From contig JABIHA010000040.1 of assembly GCA_018649885.1 (NCBI GenBank), positions 1 through 37,158 on the forward strand: DNA of 37,158 nucleotides, given 5' to 3'. The translations under genes and the position numbers were made by a program. The notes below the pieces were generated by a model, which made no database searches, was not told the origin of the DNA, and worked only from the letters and a program-made list of their open reading frames with translations. Positions 8,804 through 34,953 of this stretch are shown here, piece by piece (position 1 is the stretch's first letter; every line of letters starts with the position of its first letter). This DNA is from Bacteriovoracaceae bacterium (lineage in GTDB: Bacteria > Bdellovibrionota > Bacteriovoracia > Bacteriovoracales > Bacteriovoracaceae).

Positions 8804-8809
8804 ACCATC

Positions 8810-10688: not shown

Positions 10689-10782
10689 GTGACTCTCCGC
10701 ATTTATAAGTGATTATTGATATCATTATTTTATTTACAATAACATGTTGAAATCATTCTCGTCTTAATTGTAAAAGATATAA

Positions 10783-10796: not shown

Positions 10797-10877
10797 CATG
10801 TGGTGAAGAAATATTAAATAGTGCGCGTCTAATTTATCAAACTAATCTCTGATCTATCGCACCCTATTTTGACCGAT

Positions 10878-10904
10878 AAAAATAAGCCCCTTCTAGTAGG
10901 GGCT
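10878..10904 (-). terminator. Rho-independent terminator of por
   Basis: AGCCCCT-6nt-AGGGGCT stem followed on the minus strand by TATTTTT; overlaps the stop codon. Confidence 0.8.
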
Positions 10905-13900: not shown

Positions 13901-15522
13901 ACATGGTTTAGATCACAGTTAACTCTAATTCTTTCACGAGCAACTACTAAGAAGTAATTGGTAGGAGCACCTTTTTTCTCAGAACCGTATTTTGGATTGG
14001 CAGAGATATGTAAAAGTTGCTTTGATTTGTCAGTGTTTAGCTTGGAGACCTCTGAGAGGTTTCCAAGAATTTCGGCCATGTTTTTACCTGTGGTAATGGC
14101 ACCCCAGCCGCCAATAGAATGAATTCTAACAGCAATGGCACTTTCAGGGAGCAGGCTGACCACATCACTAGAAATGACTGCATAGGGGTGATTGACTCCT
14201 AAATAAATGAAGCTCTCTCCATCATTTGCAGCTTTTCCATCCATTCTTTTGGTTTTGCCTCTGACATACTCGTAGGCCCCCAAAATATTTTCCGGTCTAA
14301 AATCTCTCGATCCCAGTCCGTAAACCCCTTCAAATATACGGGGAACATCTTCTTCATTTAAAGTCGGAAGGTGGGCGTGACAATTGGTGGTGGCATTTTC
14401 ACGGGCCTTGGAAATGGCAGCACGCACATCTCTTGCAATGGGGTTTGAGCCAGAGTTAGGCTCATCAGTTCTCTCAAGAATAATGACATTTTTCAAACCA
14501 CTGATGGCCTCTATGATGGCCTTTTCGGGAAAGGGTCTTATGACATTGAGGTGCATGACACCAATATTATCATTGTGAGTTTCTTTAATGTAATCAATGG
14601 CCGCTTCTATATTTTCTGCACTTGAGCCCAGACTTAAAAAGACTGTGTCGGCCTTATCACAGTTGTATTTGTCTATAAGTCCATATTTTCGACCAGTGAG
14701 GTTATAGAATTCAGTATAGGCCTTTTCTAAAAATCCTAAAATATATTGATGAAAGGCACATCTTCTGGCGATAACACCAGTCATATAGTGTTCTTGGTTT
14801 TGAACAGAGCCCAATAGAATTGGATTTTTTAGACTATAGACTTCTGGAATTCTTCTACGTGTTGGGCCAAAGAGTTCTTTTTGTTCTTCTGTGGGAGTGT
14901 CGATAATATCTGAAGGGTGTCCCAGGTATTCTCTTATAAGCTCACTTTCAAGCTCAAGAAAAGTTCTTTCTAGGTGAGTTGTCAAAAAGCCATCTTGAAT
15001 ATTCATTCCAGGTGTTAGAGACAATTCAGTGACACGTCTTAGAATTAGGGTTTGGTCTACTGCTTGCTGGGCATCTTTGGCCATTAACATGGTCCAACCC
15101 GTATCCAGTGCGGCCATTATATCATCGTGTCCACAGTGAACATTAAGAGCGTGCTTGGTCAATGCCCTTGCACCAACATTGAGAACCATGGTGGAGAGTT
15201 TTCCTGGGGCGTGGTAGTACTGTTCAAGTCCATAGACTATTCCCTGACCAGAGGTAAAGTTGGAAACTCTTTTACCTGTTACTGAAAAGGCAATGGCCCC
15301 ACCTTGAGCAGAGTGCTCTCCCTCAGCTTCAACGGCCTTAACCTGATCACCAAAAACAGTTTGGGTTCCAGCCGCCACTGACATTTCAAAATTTTCACCT
15401 TGCTCTGTACTGGGGGTTATAGGATAAAAGACTCCACAATCAGAAATTCTCGCCTCTGTTTTTGAAACAAGTTGATTGCCATTGGTAGTCACTCTTTTTC
15501 CAGGGAATTTAAATTCTGGCAT
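10903..15522 (-). CDS. por: Pyruvate:ferredoxin (flavodoxin) oxidoreductase, single-chain long form
   Basis: YPITPS, AEGEHSAQG, GGWGAITTGK, ferredoxin motifs CTQCMSCIDVCP and CKGCAECVDAC, SCAGCGE, TPP motif GGDGA...YSNTGGQ. Likely start ATG 15522 after GGAG. Confidence 0.93.
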   Translation of the reverse strand: MPEFKFPGKRVTTNGNQLVSKTEARISDCGVFYPITPSTEQGENFEMSVAAGTQTVFGDQVKAVEAEGEHSAQGGAIAFSVTGKRVSNFTSGQGIVYGLEQYYHAPGKLSTMVLNVGARALTKHALNVHCGHDDIMAALDTGWTMLMAKDAQQAVDQTLILRRVTELSLTPGMNIQDGFLTTHLERTFLELESELIREYLGHPSDIIDTPTEEQKELFGPTRRRIPEVYSLKNPILLGSVQNQEHYMTGVIARRCAFHQYILGFLEKAYTEFYNLTGRKYGLIDKYNCDKADTVFLSLGSSAENIEAAIDYIKETHNDNIGVMHLNVIRPFPEKAIIEAISGLKNVIILERTDEPNSGSNPIARDVRAAISKARENATTNCHAHLPTLNEEDVPRIFEGVYGLGSRDFRPENILGAYEYVRGKTKRMDGKAANDGESFIYLGVNHPYAVISSDVVSLLPESAIAVRIHSIGGWGAITTGKNMAEILGNLSEVSKLNTDKSKQLLHISANPKYGSEKKGAPTNYFLVVARERIRVNCDLNHVDVVLCCDPKIFTHTNPLNGLKPGGAFIWESNISDKEVWQRIPPKYRKQLIDHDIKLYTLNGFEVAKSNTSNEALQTRMQGNSFLGAFFQVSTFLKEHSIDHDTFLDTVNKQYHKKFGRFGDDVVASNMEVMKAGFEKTKKIPFGEVDDFDNSALKGHIISPQNCSVKSVDGTPSGDASVYSPIFDFKKYSEEFLEGDIYNQKASALTATGIMPAASGARNSKFVSRIKTPVIDPYKCTQCMSCIDVCPDTALPNTSQDLDVVLRKVFGQYVSSEKDRKMLMAKVTEITEVVREGMNKSIADKHITPFNDLVSEQLMKLGDLSHDSLDEIKKILKTLPLGYGKTRSIFQMLEKKSPGEGGLFSIFVSDLCKGCAECVDACGDHEALTMVDEDSELRGEHLSAMEFFKTLPRTPRKYLGLFDPDNIEETRAAILHNHLMVQDHYQAFVSGDGSCAGCGEKSVLRGIVTMTEALMRPVWDRKIERVLAVAGAIKTNGLAALEKLSQKNPTSYENIKLAITHLIMGIGADSLEETKKRIEKEFSGNDKNLIDALSTVLETDAANHKTHQVIDGHHQGMTVMSMTASTGCNTVYGSTHPSNPHPYPWMNSLFQDGATIGWLVAESFIMDHARRSVIPERLANLVLSGADSFGQDDYLFLTHFSDTQMSDLEILELPKVWAVGGDGALGDIGFQNVSKVILQNRPNIHILMLDTQVYSNTGGQNSDSSIMPGGFDMNQYGKYSEGKLTERKELAQIFTSGHGSPFVAAVSMANAGKYYKAVLDGLLHRGVSFIQSFTTCQPEHGVGDNMSQKQAISVRDTRGAPEFIFNPILGENDHEAFDIKANPRNSRDWNSKKDSNKRPYDATVVQWAATEGRFRRHFIKLTDDNKMINLDDLLVRITQADVIHRRYLDLNHRSYTPVVGVYTDIVDENGKRKTVGISRHMVLFCVERRKNWRRLQSRAGVENKDYRAQQILLVKFDTGKIKKEEFFSKTYELHQETLKTL

Positions 15523-15903
15523 TTTTATGTACTCCGCTAATTTTATGAACGTAAATAGTATATTATAAAGAACGCACAAACAAAACGAGATCCTTTGTGT
15601 TTTGTTAAGAAGAAGCTTTAAGCGAATAATCGCCCCATGAAAATTTACACTGAATCATATTCAATTTTTGAGATTCAGACCTGATCAATAATAAAAAAGA
15701 ATATGCGAATTGTTGTGTGACAATAGAAGCATTTTAGGCAGCTTTTATTGGCAGTAATTCAATAAATTTTATTTCCTTAGGTTTCATGAATTACAGCAGC
15801 TTGCCCTCTTCGGTCAAAGGAGGAGTCCAAATTGGTTCACAATATAGGTAATGATTCACTTGTAAAAAACTGGCAAGTGAGAAAACCAAAAAGGGGAACG
15901 TTT

Positions 15904-16481: not shown

Positions 16482-16550
16482 GGAAAATAGGATCAGACCG
16501 CTGCATATTTAACACTAGAAAAATGAAACCACGATGTGGTAAAACTAAGA

Positions 16551-16648
16551 TATTCCTTACCTTGAGGACCTAAAGCGAGACAGCAATGGACTTAAGGCGG
16601 TACGGCACACTTGGAAACGAGTTTGTTTCCCGAATTTGGAGAGGAATG
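16551..16648 (+). ncRNA. Moco (molybdenum cofactor) riboswitch / Moco RNA motif
   Basis: P1 UAUUCCU/AGGAAUG sequestering the SD; P2 CCUUGAG/CUUAAGG; CCUAA...AUGG internal element; GAAA-tetraloop stem; UUCCCGAAUUUGGAGAGG resembling the E. coli moaA leader end; directly 5' of moeA. Confidence 0.85.
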
Positions 16649-16651
16649 GAA

Positions 16652-17863
16652 ATGATATCTTCTGATATGGCCTTTCATGAAATCATGGATAGGCAAATTG
16701 TTTTGGGCAAGAAGGCTTGCTCAGTTTTTGATTCCCTAGGACAAGTACTCTCCTGTGATGTTTTCTATGAAAACAATGGCCCCTCTTTTGATCGTGTGGC
16801 CATGGACGGAGTGGCCATAAACTTCCAGCAACGTATCGCAGGAAATTTAACCACCCACAAAATTGAAGCTGTCCAGAGGGCCGGTACGGAAAAGCTAACA
16901 CTAAAACACCACGGTTGTGCCATTGAGGTGATGACTGGAGCGATTCTTCCAAATGGTGTTGATACTGTTATCCCCTATGAAAGATGCACCATCGAAAGTG
17001 GGAGTGTCAGCTTTGATCCCCAATATGATTTAAATATGGGATCCAATGTCCATAGAAAGGGAAGTGATTTCAAAAAAGGAGATCTTTGTCTAAAAAGATC
17101 ATCTCCTATCAGTGCTCCTATGATTGGCACTATTGTTTCACAAGGAGTCAGTGAGCTAGATGTGGTACGTACTCCTTCAATTTGTGTGGTCAGTACAGGT
17201 GACGAGTTAGTAGAGCTAGATGCCACTCCTTTTGAGCACCAGCTTCGCAGATCTAATCCCTACGCCATAAGATCTGTTCTAAGTGATTACGGAATAAAAA
17301 ATGTTGAGTTAAGCCATATTGTGGACGACAAAGAGATCCTCTATGAAAAGCTTGGGGCAATCATCAGTGACCACGATGTGACCATTATTACTGGTGGAGT
17401 GTCCATGGGGAAGTTTGATTTCATTCCCCAGATTTTGAGTGATCTAAAAGTTGAAAAAGTATTTCATAAAATTAAGCAAAAACCCGGAAAGCCAATGTGG
17501 TATGGAGTTAATGCAAGTGGGGCCCAAGTTTTTGGTCTTCCTGGCAATCCTATTTCCTCGCTGGTTTGTCTTATTCGTTATGTGGCCCCAGCTCTTTTAA
17601 AGGTCTCCGGTCACGGTTATCATCAGCGCTTTGTAAAACTCAGTCAAAAAATGAGTTTTAAAAAAGAGATGACTTACTTTCCACCTGTCATTGTGAATAT
17701 TGATGATCACGGTCAGCTGTGGGCAACCCCGATTGAATTTAATGGTTCAGGAGACTATGCGTCGCTTTCTCACAGTAGTGGGGTCGTTGAGTTATGTAGT
17801 CACAAAGAGCATTTTGAAAAGGGCAGTGTTGTGCCTATCTTTCTATGGAGAAAAAATCTATGA
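16652..17863 (+). CDS. moeA: Molybdopterin molybdenumtransferase
   Basis: FDRVAMDG, VMTGAILP, STGDELV, TGGVSMGKFD, KPGKP, GLPGNP. Start 16652 after GGAGAGG. Confidence 0.95.
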   Translation: MISSDMAFHEIMDRQIVLGKKACSVFDSLGQVLSCDVFYENNGPSFDRVAMDGVAINFQQRIAGNLTTHKIEAVQRAGTEKLTLKHHGCAIEVMTGAILPNGVDTVIPYERCTIESGSVSFDPQYDLNMGSNVHRKGSDFKKGDLCLKRSSPISAPMIGTIVSQGVSELDVVRTPSICVVSTGDELVELDATPFEHQLRRSNPYAIRSVLSDYGIKNVELSHIVDDKEILYEKLGAIISDHDVTIITGGVSMGKFDFIPQILSDLKVEKVFHKIKQKPGKPMWYGVNASGAQVFGLPGNPISSLVCLIRYVAPALLKVSGHGYHQRFVKLSQKMSFKKEMTYFPPVIVNIDDHGQLWATPIEFNGSGDYASLSHSSGVVELCSHKEHFEKGSVVPIFLWRKNL

Positions 17864-21065: not shown

Positions 21066-21411
21066 TTATTTCTTTAATTGATGCGAAATACTTGATAATA
21101 AAAAATCATAGGACGATCACCATAGCGCCACATAAAAGTTAGTAATTCCCTGCCATGAGCTCGGTGAAAAGTAGTGTGGTTTTCAGACACATTCTAAATG
21201 AATTATATTTACTCATAATTTATTTGATACTCATTAAACTTGTGAGGCATATTGTTGGTAAAAAAAGAAATATTGCCTACTTGGAAGGCCCTTAAGTTGT
21301 TGAAGTCGCATAGAATCTAAGGACTCCCTTATAATAGTTCAAACTCGGTTTTTGGACTCTTCACAATTTATTTATAAAGTGTGGCTCCAAGGTGCGCAAG
21401 GAACTTTACTA

Positions 21412-23490
21412 ATGTATGTAGTCTTTCTAAGATATAAATTCACTTTTCTAGTGATTCACGCTGCACTCATTGCGCTAATGAGTTCTTGTGATTTTCAATT
21501 TCTGCCTGGTATGAGTGATGATGATGGAAACTTCTGTGACCTCTTTCCTGGCTCAGATACATGCAGTAAAGAAGCTCGCTCTGTCTCTATCTCAATTAGT
21601 GTGCCAACAGGATATTCTCCAGCCGCCTCATTGCCATCAGGACTATCCTTTGTTTCAAACACTGTTGGTGGTTCGGTAAATTATGGAACAGCTGTTGATA
21701 TAACTTTCAAAAAGGACTGCAAATTAGACATAAGCTCTATAAACGGAAGTGTTGCGGCCAACCTTACGGATACATTAACAACAGGAGCTGACAAAAACGA
21801 AACCGTGACTTTTACTTCAAGTGAGGGAGGAGTAGACCTTACAGCAGGCACAAGCTTTAACGGTATTGCAAGTAATCCCATTAGCGTTTCTTGCGGAACA
21901 GTTCTTAATATAACGGCTTCTCATGCAAAATACCCCGATATTACGCACTCTCATACAGTGACCAAGACTGAAGCTATTGATCTAAATGGATGGATTAAAT
22001 TCAACCCAGATTATCCAATCAAAAATCGAGATGTTTATATCTACGATGAACTCTCTGTAGCTGACAAAACGATCACTTTCTCTCATAATGGAGATAGCGT
22101 TACATGTTCGACAGATGGTGCAATCTATTTGGCCTGCACAACTGGTACGACCCATGAGTGGAGTAGCGCAACCAAAACTAATTATATAAAAATTACCAAG
22201 ACAAATTCCTCCGATCTCATCTATACCTTTCATCCCAAAGACGATGCCGCAAAATCTGGTTGGATCACACTCACATGTGATGTTTCAGTATCAGATGGTG
22301 ATAACCTTATGACGGTAAAGGAGATCAAGGAATATTTAGGCGGTGCCGGAACCAATATGTTTGATCACAGTCTCGGAATAAATGATCGAGTTATTTGTAT
22401 TGATAATGGAATCGTAATTAACTCAACTCAGGTAGCCGACGGAGATCTTATAAGGGCCTATGGGAATGCTACTGGAAGACTTTACGTAGTAGCAAGGGAA
22501 GGCGCTACAGTAGAATTTAAAAATAGTGTTGCAGATGCTGGCTCTAATGCTAATCTCTATACATTTAGAATTTTCACTCAAAATGTCTCTTTAGTAGGGT
22601 TAAAAATAACTTGTACTCAAAATGCTATTGCACCAGGAGCCCACTGCCTCAATAGTAATGCCGATGGATTTCATTTAAAATATAGTGATATTACCACCTC
22701 GGGAGACACGACGAATATTATCTCTTATTGGAACCAGGGTAATAATGGAATTGTAATAAAAGATGTTACAATGACTAATAATGGACCGACACTTTCACAT
22801 GGTTTTATAGGGGGAGGAAAGGTCATGGACATTGACAACTTAACAATTACCATCAACGGCGCCGGAAGGGCCCTTACCATACAAAGCCAGGGAAACAATG
22901 GAACGATCAAAAACTCTTCATTTAACTCTTCCACACTTCAGGCTTTTTTTTCCTACGGTCCGGGAAACCTAAATTTTTTAAATACTAGTTTTTACTCGTC
23001 TTCGGGACAATCATTCTATGTTCAAAATAAGGCCGCTACCGACGTAGATGGACTTGTAACATGTGATCAATGTACATTTCAGTCAGATGGTTCGAATTCC
23101 GTTGTAGTTCGAACAGATGATGTCGTGGGAACACCAACGATGAGGGCCTCAATAACCAATTCAGTATTTAAAGTTATTAATGCAGCTTTTAGCGCTGTTT
23201 TTGTTCAAGACGGCATTTTAAATTTAGATGGAAATAAATTCATTAACTATATAGGCTCTGTAAATGCTATCAATTTAGGATGTATCGCTGCCGACTGTGT
23301 CGCCGCCACTCAGGAGATAAATTCAACCTTACAAAATAATACTGCTTGTGGAAATATCCTTGCCAATAAATGGACGAGAATCCTAAAAGAGTATACTCCA
23401 AATGAAGGAAACTTTGATCCTAATGGACAAATAAATCACTCATCAAACACAGACATCCTTGACTGTGCCAGCTATGGTATTACACCTTAA
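21412..23490 (+). CDS. Surface lipoprotein with probable right-handed beta-helix (pectin-lyase-like) C-terminal region
   Basis: Lipobox-like LIALMSSC; Ser/Thr/Asn-rich; repeated I.N..F / D.L.I patterns. Start uncertain (21352 TTG or 21412 ATG). Confidence 0.7.
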   Translation: MYVVFLRYKFTFLVIHAALIALMSSCDFQFLPGMSDDDGNFCDLFPGSDTCSKEARSVSISISVPTGYSPAASLPSGLSFVSNTVGGSVNYGTAVDITFKKDCKLDISSINGSVAANLTDTLTTGADKNETVTFTSSEGGVDLTAGTSFNGIASNPISVSCGTVLNITASHAKYPDITHSHTVTKTEAIDLNGWIKFNPDYPIKNRDVYIYDELSVADKTITFSHNGDSVTCSTDGAIYLACTTGTTHEWSSATKTNYIKITKTNSSDLIYTFHPKDDAAKSGWITLTCDVSVSDGDNLMTVKEIKEYLGGAGTNMFDHSLGINDRVICIDNGIVINSTQVADGDLIRAYGNATGRLYVVAREGATVEFKNSVADAGSNANLYTFRIFTQNVSLVGLKITCTQNAIAPGAHCLNSNADGFHLKYSDITTSGDTTNIISYWNQGNNGIVIKDVTMTNNGPTLSHGFIGGGKVMDIDNLTITINGAGRALTIQSQGNNGTIKNSSFNSSTLQAFFSYGPGNLNFLNTSFYSSSGQSFYVQNKAATDVDGLVTCDQCTFQSDGSNSVVVRTDDVVGTPTMRASITNSVFKVINAAFSAVFVQDGILNLDGNKFINYIGSVNAINLGCIAADCVAATQEINSTLQNNTACGNILANKWTRILKEYTPNEGNFDPNGQINHSSNTDILDCASYGITP

Positions 23491-23541
23491 CTTTAACTTT
23501 AACTTTAACTTTAACTTTAACTTTAACTTTAACTTTAACTT
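23488..23541. repeat. (TAACTT)9 microsatellite
   Basis: Nine perfect hexamers starting at the stop codon of the lipoprotein gene, with a degenerate tail to ~23555. Confidence 0.95.
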
Positions 23542-23571
23542 TATAACTTAACTATTTAAGCTTCAACGTTT

Positions 23572-23760
23572 TTAAAAACGGCATTCACGACCTGAGAACT
23601 CTAGGATCCGTTACATATTCGCTGCCGCAATAAGATTGATATGTTGATTCCATTCTGACTTTGGCCCCAGTCCGCCCCGGATTCTAAGGACTTTCTCTAT
23701 CTGTAGCTAAACCAATTCTAAATGCCTAAAACATGGCCACAGAAACTGCCCAATTTCTAG
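23572..23760 (-). pseudogene. Degenerate fragment resembling a class I SAM methyltransferase C-terminus
   Basis: Manual translation: ...CFRHLELV*LQIEKVLRIRGGL...WNQHINLIAAANM*RILEFSGRE (two in-frame stops); resemblance judged by eye only. Confidence 0.3.
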
Positions 23761-23891
23761 CTTGGAGTAAATCTATTGTTTTTAAAGGGCCGTAAGGCCC
23801 ATAAATGGAGAACCGTTAAGGTTGTCGATAGTTTAAGGGGGCATTTGAGCAAAGATAGTGGGGGAGTTGTAGTGCTAGTTTTACTTTCTCC
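23758..23891 (+). repeat. Structured ~135-nt dispersed element, copy A
   Basis: Shares blocks TAGCTTGGAGTA, TTTTTAAAGGGCC, CGATA, TTTAAGGGGGCATTTGAGC, GGGGAGTTGT.GTGCTAGTT with 25603-25736. Confidence 0.85.
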
Positions 23892-23898
23892 CTTAATG

Positions 23899-24804
23899 CT
23901 AATCAATAACAGCGTTCTCTACGTCCTCAAGGGAGCCTTCCTCGTTTTTTCCACTGTTAAGATAGTGAAGTCCATTAATGGGATCAGCGCTAGGATCTAT
24001 GGCCCCATCATGATTGAGACATTGAACTGACCCCACAAGGCCTAGGTGTCGTTTGCCACTTTGGTAATCTATTTCAGTATGGACTGACTCAATGGGGGCC
24101 CGATTGAGTGTCTCTAATACTTCTATTTTCATGGCCTCTTTTAAATCATATGTTTTGACTCCCAGTAGGAAGAGGCCTTCAGTACAATTAATAACATCTC
24201 CGTCTGCCTCAGAGCTTGATACTTTCTGCCCTGTGTAGTGAGGATTGCTGCCATTGACTGGCTCATCACATTTTATAATTGTGTATTTGCAGTGATTAAA
24301 ATGTCTAGGATCTCCAAAACTATCACTTGGATTGGAAGAAATTCTGACAAAGCAGTTCTCACTTGATTCATCATATATAAAAAAATCCCAATCAAGTTGG
24401 TGAATACTTACTTCACATAAATTTATAGCAACTGAGTCATCGCCACTTGTTTTAATATAATCTTTACTGATGGCAGTTTGTGGAGATCGAAAGCGGACTC
24501 CCTGATAATCCTCCGGAGTGTCATAGCTTGTACTTGCAAGTACAAGTCCAATTGTTGTCGAAAGGCAGTCTCCTCCAGCAAGATTTGAAAATACATCTTC
24601 AAGCATCGCCCCCCCTCCTGCAGCCGTTCGACCTGAAGTTTCAAATAGAGAAAGTCCAGGAGCTGCAATGGTTTTGCCCAAGCAACCGAGCTGACCCACA
24701 CCAAGTTCAATTCCATCAACAGAATTCCAAACATCTGCCATGGGATCAGACCATGAAGGGTAGCTGTGGAAAATAAATAAAAATGTGAAAACCGAAGCAA
24801 GCAT
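23899..24804 (-). CDS. Hypothetical secreted Cys-containing protein
   Basis: 301-aa ORF with N-terminal signal peptide and 8 Cys; no recognised family. Confidence 0.75.
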   Translation of the reverse strand: MLASVFTFLFIFHSYPSWSDPMADVWNSVDGIELGVGQLGCLGKTIAAPGLSLFETSGRTAAGGGAMLEDVFSNLAGGDCLSTTIGLVLASTSYDTPEDYQGVRFRSPQTAISKDYIKTSGDDSVAINLCEVSIHQLDWDFFIYDESSENCFVRISSNPSDSFGDPRHFNHCKYTIIKCDEPVNGSNPHYTGQKVSSSEADGDVINCTEGLFLLGVKTYDLKEAMKIEVLETLNRAPIESVHTEIDYQSGKRHLGLVGSVQCLNHDGAIDPSADPINGLHYLNSGKNEEGSLEDVENAVID

Positions 24805-24810
24805 TACTTC

Positions 24811-24836
24811 CTATCGGATTCCTAACGGAATATTGA
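24811..24836 (-). promoter_or_regulatory. Putative sigma28/FliA promoter
   Basis: TCAAT-N13-TCCGATAG ending 6 nt before the ATG at 24804. Confidence 0.45.
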
Positions 24837-24964
24837 ATGCATTTGTAATTAGTAGAAGGTTTTGCTCGAGTTTCAGTATGACTTGGTTTTCAACTAAGGT
24901 AAGTGATTGTTAATTTAGCATTTGAATGAGGTATTCTTTTCAATAAATTACCTTTAGGTAACTG

Positions 24965-25370
24965 CTAATATCGATCTAGGACGGTAACATTTTTTATACG
25001 TTGTTTAATGATGCATTTTCGTCCAATTTTCTTTCTTGGTTCTTTATGCAGGCGGTAACCGCAGAAATAACGATACCCTGAGTAGGGGGAGCGACAATAG
25101 CGAGGGGTCCTCCTGCTCTGTTGGCCCTTGTAGTAGGTTTCCACTTTAAAAATGACTCTATTGCTGATAATCTTTATTTTTTTACCTGGCATTTTTTGGA
25201 TATAGGCCTCACCATTTTCTAGGAAACAATCGTAGTGATCATCAAATGGTTGAAGTTTGCCTCTAATAAGATTTTTTGAAATGACTTCCTTGAAAGAAAA
25301 AAAGTATTCAATTTTCTTGCCTGTGGGAACACCTTTGGAATCGACGTAATCTATGGATGTACTTCCAACG
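24965..25370 (-). pseudogene. 3' fragment of a hypothetical basic protein
   Basis: Frame is open from ~25398 to the stop at 24965 (VGSTSIDYVDSKGVPTGKKIEY...VLDRY*) with no credible start; abuts the kinase fragment. Confidence 0.45.
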
Positions 25371-25605
25371 TAGAAAAAAATGGTTGAAATAGCTTCTCTT
25401 TAATATGTGAATTAATGGCCCTTCCACTATCATCTATGTAGATAGAAATTATCCCATCACTATGTTCGACTGAGATTTTTACCCATGGGCCCTCAGTGTT
25501 TTGAACTGCTGCAAGCGCATTATTTAAAAGATTTATTAGAACTTGGGATATCTGAACTATTCTGCCTGAAAAGCATAACTGCTCTTCACTGATCAAAATC
25601 TTTAG
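25351..25605 (-). pseudogene. Histidine kinase HATPase_c fragment, truncated at both ends
   Basis: QISQVLINLLNNALAAV...DDSG...KLFQPFFST then breaks before the G2 box; no H-box. Confidence 0.8.
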
Positions 25606-25736
25606 CTTGGAGTAGTCCCATACTTTTTAAAGGGCCTTTGGGCCATAAGAGAGGACCTTTTAAGGTCCAACGATAATTTAAGGGGGCATTTGAGCTTAGG
25701 GAGTAGGGGAGTTGTGGTGCTAGTTCTACCTACTCC
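25603..25736 (+). repeat. Structured ~135-nt dispersed element, copy B
   Basis: Homologous to 23758-23891 with compensatory stem changes. Confidence 0.85.
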
Positions 25737-25737
25737 T

Positions 25738-25959
25738 ATACCAAATTCCTGTTACTTTCACATATGTCTCATCAATTCTCCAAGAAGTGCCAATTTTCTT
25801 TTTGGTCCTTTGAAATCTTTTTAAAAATTTTGGAGTATGTTTAATGACCCATAAATCAATGGTGGAATGATCGACCTTGATACCTTCACCGAGCATAATT
25901 TCTTCAACTTCACGATAAGACAGGGGATAAGATAAGTATAAACGAATACATTTTAAAAT
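25738..25959 (-). pseudogene. IS6-family transposase N-terminal fragment
   Basis: Manual translation: ILKCIRLYLSYPLSYREVEEIMLGEGIKVDHSTIDLWV...SWRIDETYVKVTGIWY, matching the IS26/IS240 motifs SYR, VDHSTI.RWV and W..DETYVKV. Confidence 0.88.
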
Positions 25960-26403
25960 TCAGCTCTATTGTGGGTCGAAGCTTTGTGACGTATCTTGCC
26001 AAACTTGATCAAAACGTTCCATCCTAGAATCGTAATTAATACAGGGAGCTGATTTTACACTACTTTTTCAAATGACCAAAGCTGAATAATTGGATTCGAC
26101 AGGACCCGGAGGCGAGCGCGCTAGACGGTACTGGTCAGCAAAAAGAATACTGTACTCCTACTAAATGAATATTATCCAGAATAAAAATTGAGAAAGATCA
26201 TTTCAAATTACCTCCAAAACTTATAATTTCCATCATTATGAAAGTTAAAAACTATTTACGACAGAAAAATAGATACAATGACAAATCTTACAAGAAAAAT
26301 TGTAACCTTTGTAACAAAGGAATCTCGCCGCTAAATATATTCGAAAGATTTCGCAAGGAGTGTAAAGAAGAGAATAAATTTAACCTTGTGTCAAAGGCCA
26401 CTG

Positions 26404-29400
26404 ATGTTTAAACGCAAAACAAGTCCAATGTCTTATTCTGAAATTCTAGAAGACCCAATTCGTGCCGAAATTTTTAGTCCTGAACGACTTGAACAATATG
26501 CATACTTTCTCGCTTCGGAGCTATCAATTGAAACTGGTAAAAAGAAAGGTCTCTCACTTCTTCCTAAGGTCCATGAAAATAGCCGTTCTCTCAAAATCTC
26601 TTACCAAAAACTAACAAAATGGGCCACAGAGGGAGTTGATCTTTCTCCTGCAGGTGAGTGGGTTATTGATAATTTTCATATTATTGAGGATCAAATTCGA
26701 GAAATAAAAGAAGACCTTCCTGAGAAGTACTATCTAGAACTACCTAAAACAAATGGAGGAAATCTCGCAGGGTATCCTCGTGTTTATGCTCTCGCATTAA
26801 CTTTGGTGGCCCATTTGGATAGTCATATTGAAATTGGAACACTTAAAAGATTTGTTCATGCTTATCAAAGTGTCACTCCACTTCTTATTGGAGAGATTTG
26901 GGCCATGCCTATTGCACTTAGAATCGCTTTGATTGAAAATCTTTTCCGACTGACAAATCAAGTAGTTATTTGTCAAGAAATGAAAATAAAAGCAGATAAA
27001 TTATCTGGAAACTTATTAGAAAGTAATCATACTTCTTCTCAAAATATACAAAAACTAACTGATGAACTATCCGAAATGTTGGGAAAGTCTCATACTTGTG
27101 ACTGTTTTGTTATTTCGCAATTATCACAAAGACTTCACTCTCGAAATCCTGAAATTCTTCCGGCCTGTGAGTGTATTGATGAATACCTAGCTAAAAAAAA
27201 TCTAAATTTTGAAGAAATTGTGCGAAACGAACACCAGCTTCAAACCACCGCACAGGTAAGTGTGAGTAATGCTATAACTAGTATGAAACTTTTATCAAAT
27301 ACTGACTGGCAAGATTTTTTTGAAAGCTTATCTCTAGTTGAACCCATTTTGGCCCAAGACCCTTTACATGTTTACAAGAATATGGAGTTTTCAACTAGAG
27401 ACCAATATCGCAATGCAATTGAACGTATACACAAAAGAACAGGTTATGGAGAAATAAAAATTGCTCAAGAAGCTATTCGCCTCGCCCAAAAAGCTTGTTG
27501 CAAGAAGGAAAAAGACAAATGCAAACACCACGTGGGTCACTACCTCATAAGAAAAGGCGTAAGGGATTTAGAGAAAAAAACTAACTATCACCCAACAATT
27601 AAAGAAAAATTAATAAGGATGGTTTTAGATCATCCAACCTCCTTTTATATTAGTTTTCTCACAACAATTATCCTTGTTCTGCTTATCCCTTTAATGGTCT
27701 ATGTCTATAGGTCGAATCCTCATTTTATATGGCCTGTCCTTATTTTAATGATAGCTTTGATACCTGCCAGTGATAGCTGTCTTAATATTTTAAATCTCTT
27801 TATTACTTATCTCGTTGGTCCATTTATCTTGCCTAAAATTAATTTAGAAGAAGGAATTCCAAACCATGCCAAAACCTTTGTAGTTATACCGACTATCATT
27901 AATCAGAAAGAGAGCATTTCTCAGCTCTTGGAAGACCTTGAAATTCGATTTCTATCAAATCAAGATAAAAATCTTTACTTTGCCATATTAAGTGATTTTG
28001 CCGATGCTGAATCCAAAAAGATGCCCTTTGATTATGAAATTATTAAAACCTTAAAAATGGGCATCAAAGCTCTTAATGATAAATACCACAAGGGACATGA
28101 GAAATTTTATTTTTTCCACCGAAAACGTCTCTGGAATCCTAGTGAGAGAAAATGGATGGGATGGGAAAGAAAACGCGGTAAGATTCATGAGTTTAATCGT
28201 TTTTTACGGGGAAATCATAACACAAGTTTTAATACTCATCCTCCATATTCTAATTTTTTTTCAGAAATAAAGTATGTCATAACTCTCGATACGGATACTA
28301 AACTGCCACGAAATGCTGCTAAAAAGCTTGTTGGAACAATTCTTCATCCTCTTAATCAACCTCAATTTGACAAAATATCAAGGATAGTGACTAAAGGTTA
28401 CAGTATTCTTCAACCCCGCATAAGCATTACTCCAGAAAGTGCTGAAAAATCACTTTTTTCCAAAATATATTCAGGGCATACAGGAATAGATCCTTATACA
28501 ACTGCGGTATCAGACTCTTACCAAGACCTTTTTGGCGAAGGTATTTATACAGGAAAAGGCCTTTATGTTGTCGATACTTTCGAATCCTCTCTTAAGAACA
28601 GAGTTTCTGAAAATACTCTTTTGAGTCACGACCTTTTTGAAGGAGTTTTCGCCCGCACTGCTCTTGTATCAGATATTGAATTCTTAGATGATTATCCCTC
28701 GAGTTTTGAATCTTTTGCTAAACGACATTACCGCTGGATTAGAGGGGATTGGCAAATTGTAAAATGGATATTTACTCATATTCCTAATAGTAGGAATAGG
28801 CCTGTAATAACCCCTCTTTCTTTCATATCGCGGTGGAAAATTTTTGATAATTTAAGGCGTAGTTTAGTTGCTCCAACTACCTTTCTTTGGTTTGTTTTAG
28901 GTTGGACCATATTGCCAGGTCATCCTCTCTTGTGGACCTTTCTTATTTTAACTGTGTTAGCATTGCCACTATATGCTCATACTGCCAGTAATATATTTAA
29001 ATATCCGCGCAGCCTTTCTCTTCTTGAGCATTTCAAAGGCATATGTGATAATATCAAGTTAAATTTGAATCAACTCACCATCTCGATTGTAACACTTCCC
29101 TACCAAACTTATTTGCATCTAGATGCTATTGTGAGGACTCTTTATAGAGTTTACTTCTCAAAAGCCAACTTGCTCGAATGGACTACTGCTGCTCAAGTTG
29201 AATCAAATATCAAAAATGGTTCATCTTTCATTCTCAATATCTTTAAATGCTCTTCAACTTTTTCTTTGGGAATTTTTTTCTTAATTTTATTTTATAGGCC
29301 TTATTCCTTGTTTATATCCGGAGTATTTCTTCTGGTATGGTTCTTCTCTCCCCTTATTTTGGAAAAAGTTAGTAAGACTCGTAACAGGGAAAAAGTTGAA

Positions 29401-32400
29401 ATTGAACCATCAGATATTGAAATTCTGAGAGGTATTGCTTGTAGAACATGGAATTTTTTTGAAACCTTTGTTACAGAAAAAAACCATTGGTTACCGCCAG
29501 ATAACTTTCAACAAGAACCCGAAGATTTAGTGGCCCATAGAACCTCACCAACGAATATGGGACTTTATCTTTTATCTGCTTGCAGCGCTTATGATTTTGG
29601 ATATATTGGGCCCGGGGAATTAATGACTCGTCTACAACAAACTCTAGATACAATGTTAAAAATCCCTAGACGTTTTGGTCATTTCTACAATTGGTATGAT
29701 ACTGTAAGCTTAGAACCATTAGAACCTGAATATATTTCTACGGTTGACAGTGGCAATCTCGCTGGACATCTATTAGCAGTCAAACAAAGTTGTCTTAAAT
29801 TAAAAGAAAAAACTCAATTTCATTCAACTACTCTATCTGGATTAGAGGATTTCATTAAAATCATTAAATATGGTATAGAAAAACTTGAACCTGCACTCAT
29901 CACCTCTCGTAGATTAAATTCTCACTCCCTTGTTTCGCAGATAAATAACTGCCTTCAATATATAAAAGAGAGCAAATTCGATCCAATCAATGAAAAATGC
30001 CATGATTTAGATGAATTGCAAAAAAGAGTAGATTTAATCAATAATCAAATTAAAAACTTGTCTCAAGAACATGGAGAAGATCACTTTAGATCAATTAATT
30101 CTTGGATTCAAAAGCTTCTTTCTAAAATAGAAAGAACAAGAGATGAGTTCACTAGTGTTACTGGTGAAATTCTACCCCTTCGATTTAAAAAACAATGTGA
30201 TGAAATTGCTCAAACTTGCCACAATCTTGTCATGGATATGGATTTCTCTGCTCTCTACGATAAAAAGCGAAAGCTTTTTACTATAGGTTACAGCATAAGA
30301 GATGGAAAAAACGATAATAGTTATTACGATCTTCTCGCTTCAGAAGCACGCCTTACAAGTTTTTTAAGTATAGCCAAGGGAGATGTTCCAGAAAATCATT
30401 GGTTCCATCTAGGGCGACAGATGACATCACTTTTTCGACATCGAGTACTTATTTCTTGGTCTGCCTCTATGTTTGAATATCTAATGCCCTTACTGGTCAT
30501 GAAGGATTATTTTGGAACCCTTTTAAATGAAACTCATATTGCCGTGATCAAACAGCAAATGACCTATGCACGACTCCGAAAACTCCCTTGGGGAATATCT
30601 GAATCGGCCTTCAATGCCAGGGATCTTAATAAAAACTATCAATATGGGCCTTTTGGAGTTCCTGGTTTGGGATTAAAAAGAGGGCTTAGCAATGATTTTG
30701 TCGTTTCTCCTTACTCTACGGCCTTGGCCTCCCTCGTTTTACCAAAGGAATCTCTAGATAACTTGAAGACATTTATTGATCAGAATCTTCTTACAGACTT
30801 TGGGTTTTATGAAGCAGTTGATTATACTGAAGGACGGATTCCTCCCAAACAAAATTTTTCTGTTATAAAAAGTTTTATGGCCCACCATCAAGGTATGACT
30901 TTAGTTGCACTGAATAATCTTCTCCATAAAAATATAATGACAACTCGGTTTCATCAAGATCCCATGGTGAAATCTTCAGAGCTTTTACTACAAGAACGTA
31001 TTCCTCAAAGAGTATCCATTCTTAATCCTAGGGCAGAAGAAATTTTGCATAAAATGGGAGAAAACTATCGCTCACTACAGACGCTTCATCATGTAGAACA
31101 GGTTAATACGGAAATTCCAGAAACAAGAGTCCTTTCAAATGGTAGTTATACACTCATGCTTACAGCAGTAGGCTCCAATTTTTCCAAATGTGGAAACTTA
31201 TCAGTTTTTAGATGGCAAGAAGACCCTACTCTTGATCGAGATGGACAATATGTCTTTATTTGTGATGATTCAGAAGAATCATTATACTCAACAACTTTTC
31301 AACCTCTGACCAAAAGTTCAAAGGACTACAAAACGATATTTTCAGAACATAAAGCTGAATTCTTTTGTAATAAAAAAAATTTCAAAACCTATACAGAGGT
31401 AATTGTTTCAGCGGAAGATAACGTAGAACTTAGACGTATCACGATTACAAATTTAACTAATAAGAAGCGCTCTTTTAGCTTAACAAGTTATGCTGAACCA
31501 GTTTTGTCTACTTCAGATTCAGACCTGGCACATCCTGCCTTTAACAAACTTTTTATTCAAACCGAGTATATTGGTGAAAAATCCGCCCTTTTGGCCAATC
31601 GAAGAAAACGATCGGAACACGAAGAAGATCTTTATGGTATTAATAAAATTGTCTATGACCATAAAAAATGTGGAACGATTCAATTTGAGACAGACAGGGA
31701 AAAATTTTTAGGACGTAAAAACTCCTTACCAAATGCTCTGAGTCTACAAAAAGATGCTAATCTCTCTAATACCGTTGGTGGAGTCTTAGATCCGATTTTC
31801 TCATTTAAAACGAGAATCACTTTAGCGCCTTTCAAAACCACGCAGGTTATCCTTGTCTCTGGTCTAGCAAAATCACGAGAAGAGGCACTTAGACTAATTG
31901 ATCAGTATCATGACACTCATGCTTTTGAGCGTGAAGATCAAATGTCTTGGACACAAAGTCAAATAACGCTCAAACATCTTAATCTTGAAATAAATGAAGT
32001 AAACACATTTCAAAAATTAGCGGGTGTAATAATTTATTCCTGTTCCAAATTACGACCGAAGGCCAACATTATTGAAAAAAATAAAAAATCACAGAACGCT
32101 CTCTGGAATTACGGAATAAGTGGAGATATTCCCATTCTTTTGGTTTCCATCAAGAATAAGCATGATGTCTCTTTTATTACAGATATTTTACAATTTCACG
32201 AGTATTTGAGAATGAAAAATATTGAATTCGATCTTGTGGTAATGAGTGATGAAACTAGCTCGTATAGAATGGCCATCTATGAAGAGCTACTTCATCAAGT
32301 AAGAATTACGGGAGGACATAGCTTACTTAATAAAAAAGGAGGGATTTTTCTTTTAAGAAAAGACATCACTCCTCCAGAAGACTTGATTTGCTTAAAATCC

Positions 32401-34953
32401 ATTGCCCGAATTTATTTTGATGCTCATCAAGGAAAATTAGAAAAACAAGTTAATCACCTTTTAAAATCGAAAGGCCTTCCCAAGGTAGAAGTGCCAGACG
32501 AACCCTTCCCATCAAATTGGAGAGAGTTTTCTATTAATAAACCTCAGCTTGAATTCTTCAATGGTTTAGGTGGCTTTAAAGAGGGGGGACGAGAATATCA
32601 GATTTTCCTGGATGAAAAAAAGGTTACTCCAGCACCATGGATTAATGTAATATCCAATTCAAAAGGATTTGGATTTCTTGTTTCAGAATCAGGAAGTTGC
32701 CATACTTGGTCACAAAATAGTAGAGAAAATCGTATTACTCCATGGAGTAATGATTCTATTCTCGATCCATCTGGTGAGATTATTTATCTTTATGATCAAG
32801 ATACTAAGGAAAGTTGGTCACCAACGCCAGGATATGCCCGGGATAAATCCTCCTATCTTGTTCGTCATGGTCAGGGGTACTCCATTTTTGAGCATAACAG
32901 TTTTGAGATAGCTCAAAAATTATCAATGTATGTTTCGCTTGATAAAGAAGTAAAGTTTGTCCGTTTGAAACTTAAAAATTTAAGCAACGTTAAGAGAAGG
33001 ATTTCTGCCTATTATTATTTGGAGTGGGTCTTAGGGTATCATCGAACCCAAACAGCTCACCATATTATTACAAAACAGGGTGGTGGTAAAAATATTTTCT
33101 ATGCTCAGAACCGCATTCAGCATGATTTTGGGAATAATATTACATTTGCTTGTTCCAGTAAAGAAGTCACATCATTTACATGTCATCGAGCCTCATTCGT
33201 AGGCCGACACGGGGACTTTGATAAACCAGTCGCCCTTAATCAAAAAGGGCTTGATAAAAAAATAGGAGCAGGTCTCGATCCTTGTTTAGCGATGAAAATT
33301 GATCTAGAGCTTAACCCTCAAGAAGAGGATGAGATTATTTTTCTCTTAGGACAAACGTCTGATGACAGTCAAATTCAGCAACTCGTTGAAAAATTTTTAA
33401 AACCTAAAATGGCAGATCATGCTCTTAAAGAAGTACAGGATTTTTGGGATAATACTCTTGGGGTCATTAAAATTAAAACTCCTTTTCCTCACTTTGATAT
33501 TCTAATGAATCGGTGGATGCTCTATCAAACAATATCAAGTCGTATTTGGGCACGAACTGCCTTTTATCAGTCTGGAGGTGCTTATGGTTTTAGGGACCAA
33601 TTGCAAGATGTGTCTGCTCTTATTCATTCAAATCCCGAGATAGCAAGAGATCATATTCTTAAAGCAGCAGCTCACCAATTTCGCGAGGGAGATGTTCTTC
33701 ACTGGTGGCATCCTCCTATGGACCGAGGGGTGAGAACACGATTTTCTGACGATCTTTTGTGGTTGCCCTACGTTGTCGATCACTACGTAAAAACAACGAA
33801 AGATGAAGCTATATTTGAAGAAAGCATTCCGTTTATTAAAGGACTTCTCTTATCAGAAGGGCAAGATGATCTCTACATGCAAGTAACAAAAAGTGATAAG
33901 AAAGTAACTCTTTTTGAACATTGTATACTTGCACTAGATCGCAGTCTTAAACTTGGGCAACATGGGCTTCCCCTTATGGGCTCAGGAGATTGGAATGATG
34001 GCATGAATAAAGTGGGAAATAAAGGACAAGGAGAAAGTGTCTGGCTGGCGTGGTTTTTAGGTACCAACCTACAATCTTTCATCGACATTTGCCAAAAACG
34101 AGGAGATCAGGAGCGAGTCAACATTTATAAAGCTCATTTAAAGAAATTAAAAAAATCTCTTGAAACAACCGGCTGGGATGGTGAATGGTATCGTCGCGCC
34201 TATTTTGATGATGGAATGCCTCTAGGCTCTCATCAAAATGACGAATGTAAAATCGACTCAATTGCCCAATCTTGGAGCATCCTTTCTAACCTTGGAGACA
34301 AAGAACATAGAAAAAAGGCACTTGAGTCCGCGAAGACCTACCTTATCAATAATGAACAAGAGTTAGTTCATTTGTTCACACCTCCCTTTGATAAAACAAG
34401 ACTTGATCCTGGCTACATCAAAGGTTATCTTCCTGGTATTCGTGAAAATGGTGGCCAATATACCCATGCTGCCATTTGGTTAGCGATGGCCTTCGCTAAG
34501 GAAGGGGACAGTGATATGGGCCTTAAAATCATGAATATGATTAACCCTATAAAACATTCTTTAACTAAAAGTGATACTCAGGTTTACAAGATCGAACCTT
34601 ATGTTATCCCCGCGGACATTTACTCAACTCCTTTATTCTTAGGAAAAGGCGGATGGAGCTGGTACACAGGGTCATCTGCTTGGTATTATAGGGCCTTTAT
34701 CGAATCGATTTTGGGTATTCGTCGCGAGGGAAACACGCTTGTATTTAGACCATCGCTGCCAAAAAATTTTAGAGAGTATGAAGTACAATACCACTTTGGC
34801 TCAAGTATTTACAAAATTTCAGTTCAAATAACAAAAGAAATGAGCGCAATTTATCTTGATCAAAAATTCCTGGGGAATGATTTGATTTTACCTTTAGTTG
34901 ATAATAAATGTGATCATTTAGTAACAATAAAAGTTTGCTGTACAAAAAATTAA
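26404..34953 (+). CDS. ndvB: Cyclic beta-1,2-glucan synthase (GT84 + glucoamylase-like cyclising domain + GH94 phosphorylase)
   Basis: About 2850 aa; WMGWERKRGK, TLDTDT, LLSHDLFEG, RWIRGDWQ, HRTSPTNMG, YYDLLASEARL, SFMAHHQGM, YQSGGAYGFRDQLQD, GDWNDGMN, RENGGQYTH. Start uncertain (26386/26404/26428). Confidence 0.93.
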   Translation: MFKRKTSPMSYSEILEDPIRAEIFSPERLEQYAYFLASELSIETGKKKGLSLLPKVHENSRSLKISYQKLTKWATEGVDLSPAGEWVIDNFHIIEDQIREIKEDLPEKYYLELPKTNGGNLAGYPRVYALALTLVAHLDSHIEIGTLKRFVHAYQSVTPLLIGEIWAMPIALRIALIENLFRLTNQVVICQEMKIKADKLSGNLLESNHTSSQNIQKLTDELSEMLGKSHTCDCFVISQLSQRLHSRNPEILPACECIDEYLAKKNLNFEEIVRNEHQLQTTAQVSVSNAITSMKLLSNTDWQDFFESLSLVEPILAQDPLHVYKNMEFSTRDQYRNAIERIHKRTGYGEIKIAQEAIRLAQKACCKKEKDKCKHHVGHYLIRKGVRDLEKKTNYHPTIKEKLIRMVLDHPTSFYISFLTTIILVLLIPLMVYVYRSNPHFIWPVLILMIALIPASDSCLNILNLFITYLVGPFILPKINLEEGIPNHAKTFVVIPTIINQKESISQLLEDLEIRFLSNQDKNLYFAILSDFADAESKKMPFDYEIIKTLKMGIKALNDKYHKGHEKFYFFHRKRLWNPSERKWMGWERKRGKIHEFNRFLRGNHNTSFNTHPPYSNFFSEIKYVITLDTDTKLPRNAAKKLVGTILHPLNQPQFDKISRIVTKGYSILQPRISITPESAEKSLFSKIYSGHTGIDPYTTAVSDSYQDLFGEGIYTGKGLYVVDTFESSLKNRVSENTLLSHDLFEGVFARTALVSDIEFLDDYPSSFESFAKRHYRWIRGDWQIVKWIFTHIPNSRNRPVITPLSFISRWKIFDNLRRSLVAPTTFLWFVLGWTILPGHPLLWTFLILTVLALPLYAHTASNIFKYPRSLSLLEHFKGICDNIKLNLNQLTISIVTLPYQTYLHLDAIVRTLYRVYFSKANLLEWTTAAQVESNIKNGSSFILNIFKCSSTFSLGIFFLILFYRPYSLFISGVFLLVWFFSPLILEKVSKTRNREKVEIEPSDIEILRGIACRTWNFFETFVTEKNHWLPPDNFQQEPEDLVAHRTSPTNMGLYLLSACSAYDFGYIGPGELMTRLQQTLDTMLKIPRRFGHFYNWYDTVSLEPLEPEYISTVDSGNLAGHLLAVKQSCLKLKEKTQFHSTTLSGLEDFIKIIKYGIEKLEPALITSRRLNSHSLVSQINNCLQYIKESKFDPINEKCHDLDELQKRVDLINNQIKNLSQEHGEDHFRSINSWIQKLLSKIERTRDEFTSVTGEILPLRFKKQCDEIAQTCHNLVMDMDFSALYDKKRKLFTIGYSIRDGKNDNSYYDLLASEARLTSFLSIAKGDVPENHWFHLGRQMTSLFRHRVLISWSASMFEYLMPLLVMKDYFGTLLNETHIAVIKQQMTYARLRKLPWGISESAFNARDLNKNYQYGPFGVPGLGLKRGLSNDFVVSPYSTALASLVLPKESLDNLKTFIDQNLLTDFGFYEAVDYTEGRIPPKQNFSVIKSFMAHHQGMTLVALNNLLHKNIMTTRFHQDPMVKSSELLLQERIPQRVSILNPRAEEILHKMGENYRSLQTLHHVEQVNTEIPETRVLSNGSYTLMLTAVGSNFSKCGNLSVFRWQEDPTLDRDGQYVFICDDSEESLYSTTFQPLTKSSKDYKTIFSEHKAEFFCNKKNFKTYTEVIVSAEDNVELRRITITNLTNKKRSFSLTSYAEPVLSTSDSDLAHPAFNKLFIQTEYIGEKSALLANRRKRSEHEEDLYGINKIVYDHKKCGTIQFETDREKFLGRKNSLPNALSLQKDANLSNTVGGVLDPIFSFKTRITLAPFKTTQVILVSGLAKSREEALRLIDQYHDTHAFEREDQMSWTQSQITLKHLNLEINEVNTFQKLAGVIIYSCSKLRPKANIIEKNKKSQNALWNYGISGDIPILLVSIKNKHDVSFITDILQFHEYLRMKNIEFDLVVMSDETSSYRMAIYEELLHQVRITGGHSLLNKKGGIFLLRKDITPPEDLICLKSIARIYFDAHQGKLEKQVNHLLKSKGLPKVEVPDEPFPSNWREFSINKPQLEFFNGLGGFKEGGREYQIFLDEKKVTPAPWINVISNSKGFGFLVSESGSCHTWSQNSRENRITPWSNDSILDPSGEIIYLYDQDTKESWSPTPGYARDKSSYLVRHGQGYSIFEHNSFEIAQKLSMYVSLDKEVKFVRLKLKNLSNVKRRISAYYYLEWVLGYHRTQTAHHIITKQGGGKNIFYAQNRIQHDFGNNITFACSSKEVTSFTCHRASFVGRHGDFDKPVALNQKGLDKKIGAGLDPCLAMKIDLELNPQEEDEIIFLLGQTSDDSQIQQLVEKFLKPKMADHALKEVQDFWDNTLGVIKIKTPFPHFDILMNRWMLYQTISSRIWARTAFYQSGGAYGFRDQLQDVSALIHSNPEIARDHILKAAAHQFREGDVLHWWHPPMDRGVRTRFSDDLLWLPYVVDHYVKTTKDEAIFEESIPFIKGLLLSEGQDDLYMQVTKSDKKVTLFEHCILALDRSLKLGQHGLPLMGSGDWNDGMNKVGNKGQGESVWLAWFLGTNLQSFIDICQKRGDQERVNIYKAHLKKLKKSLETTGWDGEWYRRAYFDDGMPLGSHQNDECKIDSIAQSWSILSNLGDKEHRKKALESAKTYLINNEQELVHLFTPPFDKTRLDPGYIKGYLPGIRENGGQYTHAAIWLAMAFAKEGDSDMGLKIMNMINPIKHSLTKSDTQVYKIEPYVIPADIYSTPLFLGKGGWSWYTGSSAWYYRAFIESILGIRREGNTLVFRPSLPKNFREYEVQYHFGSSIYKISVQITKEMSAIYLDQKFLGNDLILPLVDNKCDHLVTIKVCCTKN

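Follow-up and report, generated by a model that had tools for sequence, protein, structure and literature searches.

Probable solo copies of an ISCR/IS91-type outer end and their candidate role as joints of gene-capture arrays in a Bacteriovoracaceae bacterium and its relatives

INTRODUCTION

In integrons, gene cassettes are collected in attI/attC arrays by the tyrosine recombinase IntI. Elements of the IS91 family have defined ends, use the tetranucleotides CTTG/GTTC next to oriIS as targets and undergo one-ended transposition (PMC13181058, in the portion available), and the ends of the ISCR elements have been described together with their presumed rolling-circle movement (available sections of PMC13393415). 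The only explanation offered for the DNA found downstream of oriIS is the Toleman model, cited in the accessible part of PMC7707992, in which two aberrant rounds are combined with recombination. In this study, we analysed contig JABIHA010000040.1 of a Bacteriovoracaceae bacterium, a stretch of 37,158 nucleotides (nt) that is called the window hereafter and to which all unlabelled coordinates refer. It carries two related repeats on the + strand. From their sequence and position, we identify them as detached, solo copies of the end that an ISCR/IS91-type HUH element has on its outer side, at the position of oriIS. Such repeats probably mark the joints of gene-capture arrays that the enzyme of this element would build.

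Arrays of solo ISCR ori units were not found described in the literature covered, a scope that left the subscription journals with much of the ISCR work largely outside; in the text available, neither PMC7923331 nor PMC11539080 describes such a system. Genomes are designated here by G and a number, G000 being the source genome of the window (5.4 Mb in 151 contigs, 92% complete, 38% GC). C denotes a contig, of the source genome when no genome prefix is given (C4, C12, C18, C21, C63, C125, C138 etc.), and L an extracted locus. Metagenome loci were collected with an exact pattern; the unit was present in 16 of the 74 obtained, and the other 58 were discarded as chance matches. Because a query made from the end of one element misses elements with other ends, zeros in other genomes are not to be read as absences.

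RESULTS

Identity of the repeats

The preliminary description of this DNA, made from the sequence alone, had reported two copies of a structured element that begin at YTAG. Both copies are real and both start in this way: copy A runs from its inner junction to its outer ori end at 23757-23892 and copy B at 25602-25737, each of 136 nt (BLASTN, 76.6% identity over 141 nt, E 1.6e-21). A profile search of the source genome gave 35 matches at E values up to 10, among which 16 were full length at E < 1e-20. Two of these 16 lie directly 3' of a transposase gene (on C138 and C63), and the remaining 14 are solo copies that join unrelated DNA. The two transposases are intact, are 477 amino acids long and contain PF14319 and PF04986, and the unit starts ∼46 nt after their stop codon. 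They are 39% identical to the ISVsa3 enzyme and 38% to that of ISCR1, keep the HUH and Tyr-Arg residues and score under the NCBIfam cut-offs for both ISCR clade Ia and IS91. Two close transposase matches bear source names that point to Bacteriovoracales.

The inner limit of the unit is a fixed point situated 44-55 nt past the transposase stop codon (∼77 nt in two more distant elements). The outer terminus of the unit, fixed by the divergence of the flanks, has a motif that by eye resembles those of ISCR1 and ISVsa3. By this terminal motif and by its position downstream of the transposase, the unit is the oriIS region. Neither terminal inverted repeats nor target duplications were present at the unit junctions tested, and the target of IS91 sensu stricto (IS91, IS801 and IS1294) next to oriIS, CTTG/GTTC, was absent from 10 distinct right flanks. 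At the other extremity, C138, C63 and C18 share a left boundary ∼80 nt before the transposase start codon. Seven copies, including that of C138, are identical over 136 nt and have different flanks, which indicates recent activity.

The preliminary description had proposed, as one of two possibilities, a non-autonomous HUH-type site joining DNA segments, and had called for a search for further copies in the genome; the position of the unit at the downstream end of two transposase-bearing copies and the numerous solo copies bear out this proposal. It had also stated that the repeat matches no family. This is wrong as regards the sequence, whose place is that of the ISCR oriIS, and stands for the array behaviour, for which we found no description.

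Two further loci were observed. On C18 (384-3537, - strand), the left end of the element and the first 37 transposase codons are followed by ∼2.8 kb of other genes and then by a unit. On C99 (43958-44016), the stretch from the stop codon to the inner site is found alone and enters foreign DNA at the inner site, as a reciprocal product would; this is one old copy only.

Junction rules and cargo

On the outer side, the last base of the unit coincides with the start of homology between the flank and its paralog, or is only a few bases away from it, in 6 of 8 copies; in C48 and C88 the homology begins further out. No common motif was detected in the 10 distinct right flanks of the identical subtype. 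On the inner side, YT ends all 14 distinct left flanks of the source genome, for a background of 0.18. The same dinucleotide was found in 27 of the 27 anchored flanks (38 rows) of a second family, that of L043, and in 16 of 21 (25 rows) in G119. The host T at the inner junction is common to the paralog in 6/6 source-genome comparisons and the next A in 3/6. Moreover, a CTAATT-type motif stands immediately left of the inner point in the transposase-linked copies and again inside the outer end, and the solo units keep the outer motif only, the left copy being gone.

For nine solo copies a usable paralog (mostly 69-98% identical) was available, and in none of them did the flanks rejoin into one source locus, as a simple insertion would require. 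Cargo for which there is a close source forms a single contiguous foreign piece. The C12 cargo matches C125 across 4.1 kb at 83%, and, on C41, 5.7 kb separate the positions of the start of one cargo and of the cargo end of another assembly. In L174, a 6.35-kb C92-like segment has its end linked by one unit to its own start, an arrangement that fits what a circle or a tandem copy would give. In addition, the transposase-linked ori of C138 is joined to a point within a DUF218 gene (L001, G000:C138, 1-107) that is 100% identical in the C12 cargo, where the gene is intact (L005, G000:C12, 562-668); this identity points to a very recent junction of the outer end. The assembled contigs of seven sequencing runs confirmed cargo and alternative flanks, phasing across a 136-nt repeat being impossible. 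Flank pairings that differ between assemblies (C23, C149, L194, L195) may reflect real shuffling or mis-joins and were not counted as evidence.

Units and arrays in related genomes

Transposase matches were present in 31 of the 237 genomes of the family, source genome included. As a DNA query, the window unit gave one weak match among 40 relatives; its sequence is lineage-specific, and the relatives were reached via the transposase. A related-locus search with the transposase as query returned nothing. In the relatives, the DNA downstream of the transposase ends in a common motif ∼180-200 nt past the stop codon, and the CTAATT-type motif occurs twice, left of the inner point and at the outer end, in at least 7 of the 27 transposase loci listed. 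Solo units that begin sharply at the inner point occur in G119, G122, G072, G197, G205, G210, G137 and G138. In other families they were found in 3 of the 5 genomes tested (G351, G321 and G263, the latter as short matches). The solo units measure 131-155 nt, and their ratio to transposase-linked units is 14:2 in the source genome and exceeds 30:1 in G119.

G119 holds the longest array. All 35 matches in 115 kb have the same strand, and 34 are confined to 68 kb, with a spacing of 0.5-7 kb. The transposase-linked unit and the next four downstream units are identical, and unit identity declines with distance from the transposase (rho -0.62, p 0.003, n=20, the units not being independent). One cargo and its unit are duplicated in tandem. 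The cargo ends cut genes (ORF6N, HipA and POR). Many secreted-looking unknown proteins, RHS-like tips by eye, and Fic, RelA/SpoT-domain, nucleotidyltransferase and ABC zinc-uptake genes are encoded in the array (L111-L114, G119:C1 1360563-1429043).

Resistance genes and plasmids

G351 (one contig) and G072, which belong to two families, share an element that is 100% identical over 1,793 nt (loci L256/L257, G351:C1 1952859-1964825, and L115, G072:C48). Their arrays hold lnu-like, cmlA/floR-family and mph-like genes, to which tet(G) and tetR are added in G351 and a weak CPT-like gene in G072. G351 has an extra 1.4-kb cargo with a lnu-like gene and its unit. This cassette adjoins the transposase-linked unit and sits before the first cargo of G072, a cmlA/floR-family gene. 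The simpler reading of this difference would be the gain of a cassette.

The solo unit of the same element (152-155 nt) occurs at 37 places in 19 plasmids (10 of E. coli, 8 of Salmonella and 1 of Acinetobacter), and the transposase side is covered in none of these. Among 5,426 E. coli genomes, 9 carry the solo unit. Two controls behaved differently: on plasmids, ISVsa3 has 4042 ori places vs 4086 places for its transposase end, and ISCR1 2602 vs 2579, which shows that these elements have no excess of solo ends. In NZ_CP039857.1 (L265, 6001-8680) and NZ_AP024116.1 (L267), a full unit, a tet(M) segment and an 88-nt cut unit follow each other, and this bracket lies between two intI1 copies. At least 80% of each tet(M) junction query is covered in 18 plasmids. 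The 2,439-bp tet(M) piece of NZ_CP039857.1 is 99.06% identical to a single stretch of an Enterococcus faecalis plasmid; its first base comes directly after the outer end, and its last is at the inner junction of the next unit. In the Acinetobacter baumannii plasmid NZ_CP048828.1 (L266, 5001-5154), a single solo unit is located downstream of tet(X) and estT. The records viewed carry no annotation for the 152-155-nt unit, which would thus provide a new surveillance marker. The available part of PMC11539080, a paper on tet(M), deals with IS26-bounded forms and does not mention the unit there; an earlier mention in the literature of the repeat around tet(M) is possible.

The window repeats and their surroundings

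Copy B, whose nearest subtypes are those of C4 and C63, had been placed between a truncated IS6 transposase and a truncated kinase, and we confirmed both sides. The 5' part of a decayed IS6 transposase (25738-26030, - strand; NF033587 positions 35-84 of 202) is cut at the outer end of B. A histidine kinase HATPase_c fragment (25351-25596, - strand) is cut at its inner junction, beyond which the intact C21 paralog continues. The inner junction core of B (25602-25605, +) is matched by this kinase paralog through 25605. That of A (23757-23760, +) is matched by the C125 paralog to 23758 and then diverges, and a loose end at this core also appeared in 2 of the 4 sequencing runs displayed. The left flank of A (23690-23758) is 94% identical to C125 15264-15332, where the paralog continues without the unit. 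The outer ori-end motifs are at 23875-23892 in A and 25720-25737 in B, both on the + strand; by eye, that of A is like the ends of ISCR1 and ISVsa3, and the same motif stands to the left of the inner site where the copies are linked to a transposase.

The cargo between the two units (23893-25601, 1.7 kb) contains a 301-amino-acid open reading frame (23899-24804, - strand) with a start that by eye resembles a signal peptide; it has no Pfam family and gave no relative besides itself. Copy A had been described as lying between a stop codon and a decayed gene fragment. It is indeed 6 nt from the stop codon of this reading frame, while the DNA on its left is non-coding and not a recognisable decayed gene. 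Further along the cargo, the part at 24846-25603 matches C21 62222-64272 in three separate stretches, with 82-90% identity.

Structure of the unit

The compensatory base changes reported in the preliminary description are not significant, as the covariation score of 0.106, computed on 10 distinct copies for the helices other than the AACC/GGACC/GGCC hairpin, was matched by 200 of 500 shuffles. The first GC hairpin of A (23787-23800, +), a GGCC helix said to covary, has identical pairs in A and B and differs in the loop alone. The 3' stems cited as covarying are 4 columns apart in register and are therefore not homologous pairs. What survives is the AACC/GGACC/GGCC hairpin (second hairpin of A, 23811-23823, +), the only helix with double changes (two among three alleles), which was read by eye because MAFFT misaligned it. 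Without this hairpin, the proposed helices have 87% of cells paired over the 10 distinct copies; the closing helices were not recovered by RNAalifold. Preferential folding of the + strand was borne out as RNA (z -2.3, vs -0.8 and -1.4 for the - strand) and not as DNA, where no strand stands out (z -1.1 to -1.7 for both strands of the window copies). The G119 unit as DNA (z 0.7 and -0.15) folds no better than shuffles. With the covariation, the RNAalifold result and the fold of the G119 unit, the reading as a non-coding RNA class is left unsupported. One RNA run, X16, yielded scattered assembled contigs that do not bear on a transcript.

Membership of an Rfam family was rejected: neither copy matches at the gathering score, and Histone3 alone appears when E values up to 1 are allowed, with 20.5 bits for a cut-off of 34. 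An IS110 bridge RNA was likewise rejected, PF02371 and PF01548 not being found in the 92% complete genome by a search in which the controls gave a match in 6 of 14 cases.

Other features of the window

A perfect 6-nt tandem array of 9.5 copies (23487-23543) lies at the end of a gene for 712 amino acids; a joint that skips ∼200 nt at this place was seen in 4/4 runs and is probably the C125 paralog. Two long open reading frames (21352-23490, +, and 1-1404, -) have no Pfam match, and the second has 231-nt repeats. A molybdenum/tungsten riboswitch (16541-16662, +; RF01055, 42.5 bits) heads a moeA-moaA-moaC-mobAB-moaE cluster. A multihaem cytochrome, Fe-S and NrfD cluster (6166-15579, -) adjoins a pyruvate:ferredoxin oxidoreductase-like gene for 1558 amino acids. 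Finally, a protein of 2855 amino acids (26386-34953, +) has glycosyltransferase and GH94 domains, and from these we take it to be of the cyclic beta-1,2-glucan synthase type.

DISCUSSION

Proposed mechanism

We propose that the solo units are joints of arrays assembled by the ISCR/IS91-type enzyme. The enzyme would first attach the ori end anywhere in DNA that is incoming or lies nearby; a nick and rejoining at the inner site and at a look-alike host site 0.5-7 kb further on would then release a circle composed of the unit and its cargo. This circle would enter beside the transposase-linked unit, via the enzyme or via RecA across the identical unit, so that arrays would grow from the transposase end. 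Solo ends arrayed with foreign DNA between them, and the end that brackets tet(M), suggest that the enzyme is likely an integron-like gene-capture machine. A broader version of the proposal is an integron analogue driven by an HUH enzyme. Through two sites in direct repeat, the outer one being the ori and the inner one comparable to attI, a clade of ISCR-type transposases would excise kilobase pieces from foreign DNA, close each into a circle together with a copy of the element's end, and add them one after another next to the enzyme gene. This would comprise arrays of at least 35 units in Bdellovibrionota, the capture of resistance genes and the delivery of a Firmicute tet(M) to enterobacterial plasmids. 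We advance this version tentatively and give it somewhat less than an even chance.

Several observations weigh against these proposals. The inner rule differs between elements: the G138 solo units share CAAT (3/3), and G263 differs again. The inner T is derived from the element in the tet(M) case and shared with the paralog in the source genome. In G119, the trend of identity with distance is not monotonic and six matches lie upstream of the transposase. Units on opposite strands of the same contig occur in G122, G205:C20, G197:C251 and G210:C110, and G336 and G343 have no full solo unit within ∼20 kb. The difference between G351 and G072 could also be due to loss, by recombination between identical units. 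Identical 136-nt repeats in a 151-contig assembly are open to mis-joining, and the sources assigned to cargo in the source genome are mostly paralogs at 69-98% identity, that is, stand-ins for the true sources. Lastly, activity, circle and nick are predictions, and the order of all the steps is inferred.

Alternative explanations

The units might instead be miniature products of one-ended transposition, like those of IS801, that insert singly and have no dedicated inner site, the arrays arising later through read-through, adjacent deletion and RecA as in the Toleman model for ISCR1. Fragments of 229, 360 and 679 nt that keep the right end and have fixed left ends do transpose (available text of PMC3189936), and a model with a two-round circle and homologous recombination has been described for ISCR1 (PMC7707992, as far as accessible). 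Scattered and opposite-strand copies do occur, and the tandem duplication is consistent with RecA. However, none of nine solo copies behaves as a simple insertion. A single cassette would, moreover, require two events on the same strand, independent of each other and separated by a few kb, and this ∼35 times in one region. Each element has a single inner boundary, adjoining a repeated motif, and the host-side preference is found at this inner end, whereas in IS801 and IS91 it is found next to ori. We regard this explanation as the main rival, less probable than the proposed mechanism.

The resemblance of the co-oriented, polar arrays to integrons or pdif modules could suggest that the unit is the recombination site of a different enzyme, be it a host tyrosine recombinase or an integrase of the integron type, and that the HUH gene supplied the first copy only. 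A YT-A step 6 nt inside the outer end of several elements also looks, by eye, like a staggered cut. Such an origin is nevertheless highly improbable given that the outer junctions have no common core, that cargo ends cut genes (ORF6N, HipA, POR, kinase, IS6) and that inspection revealed no inverted attC or dif boxes; an integron integrase was found in 0 of 5 genomes, in a search that detected no control either. We attach the smallest probability to an RNA role of the unit, which would itself be, or would encode in addition, a structured + strand RNA or a guide working with the transposase. The z score of -2.3 in both copies, the high pairing with invariant G-U pairs and the outward promoters of the ISCR1 ori end (PMC13393415, part available) would agree with it. 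Against it stand a covariation no higher than in shuffles, the differing registers of the 3' stems, the poor fold of the G119 unit as DNA and the lack of an IS110 family gene in the genome; in addition, the identical copies with different flanks show no variable guide-like loops.

Significance

According to the available text of PMC13393415, the transposition of ISCR elements is still presumed and not demonstrated. The elements described here supply dozens of base-exact junctions and a small candidate substrate in which ∼190 nt contain both sites; their enzymes are intact and were active recently. The question of how DNA downstream of oriIS is acquired thereby becomes directly testable. If the model is true, they would represent a second cassette-array system, one working on any DNA, and would make it possible to trace how resistance genes (lnu-like, cmlA/floR-family, mph-like and tet(M)) travel through predatory bacteria.

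Comparison with known systems

Like ISCR1 and ISCR2/ISVsa3, the element encodes a Zn-binding and Y2_Tnp HUH transposase (38-39% identity) and has a fixed end past the stop codon with a similar terminal motif, at ∼180-200 nt here vs ∼235 nt in ISCR1/ISVsa3. It also resembles them in having neither target motif nor duplication at the ori end, and captured DNA downstream of ori. It differs from ISCR1/ISVsa3 by its second, inner junction, which yields solo 131-155-nt units that outnumber the transposase. In the available part of PMC3189936, miniature IS801 forms (229, 360 and 679 nt) are likewise short and ori-bearing, derive from a full IS91-family element and have fixed left ends that are internal to it; they were caught as trap-gene insertions and have several left ends, whereas one inner end per element is seen here. 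The host-side preference at the inner end, the absence of simple insertions (0/9) and the long cargo arrays also set the present units apart from mini-IS801.

The IS200/IS605 peel-and-paste elements have in common with the present system an HUH enzyme, the lack of duplication and a short host motif 5' of one + strand junction. They differ in that here the flanks do not rejoin into one target and no link to a Y1 TnpA was seen. The gene linked to the unit is a Y2_Tnp, vs the Y1 RAYT gene of REP/RAYT systems, no search having been aimed at RAYT. With integrons, the system shares co-oriented repeats with cargo, an enzyme near one end, the youngest repeats beside this enzyme, and cargo with resistance and toxin-antitoxin-like genes. 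Co-oriented arrays that appear to grow from the enzyme end were found in G119 and in the comparison of G351 with G072, with strand exceptions. It is unlike them in its HUH enzyme, in its cargo, which is cut DNA of 0.5-7 kb that includes promoters and broken genes oriented either way, and in its repeat, which is a copy of the element's own end. Membership of the integrons was rejected, since there are no single whole-gene cassettes with attC boxes, genes are cut at the junctions and inspection revealed no inverted end boxes. Our verdict from these comparisons is that the unit, although failing integron membership, would work like an integron and belongs to the oriIS kind of the ISCR/IS91 elements.

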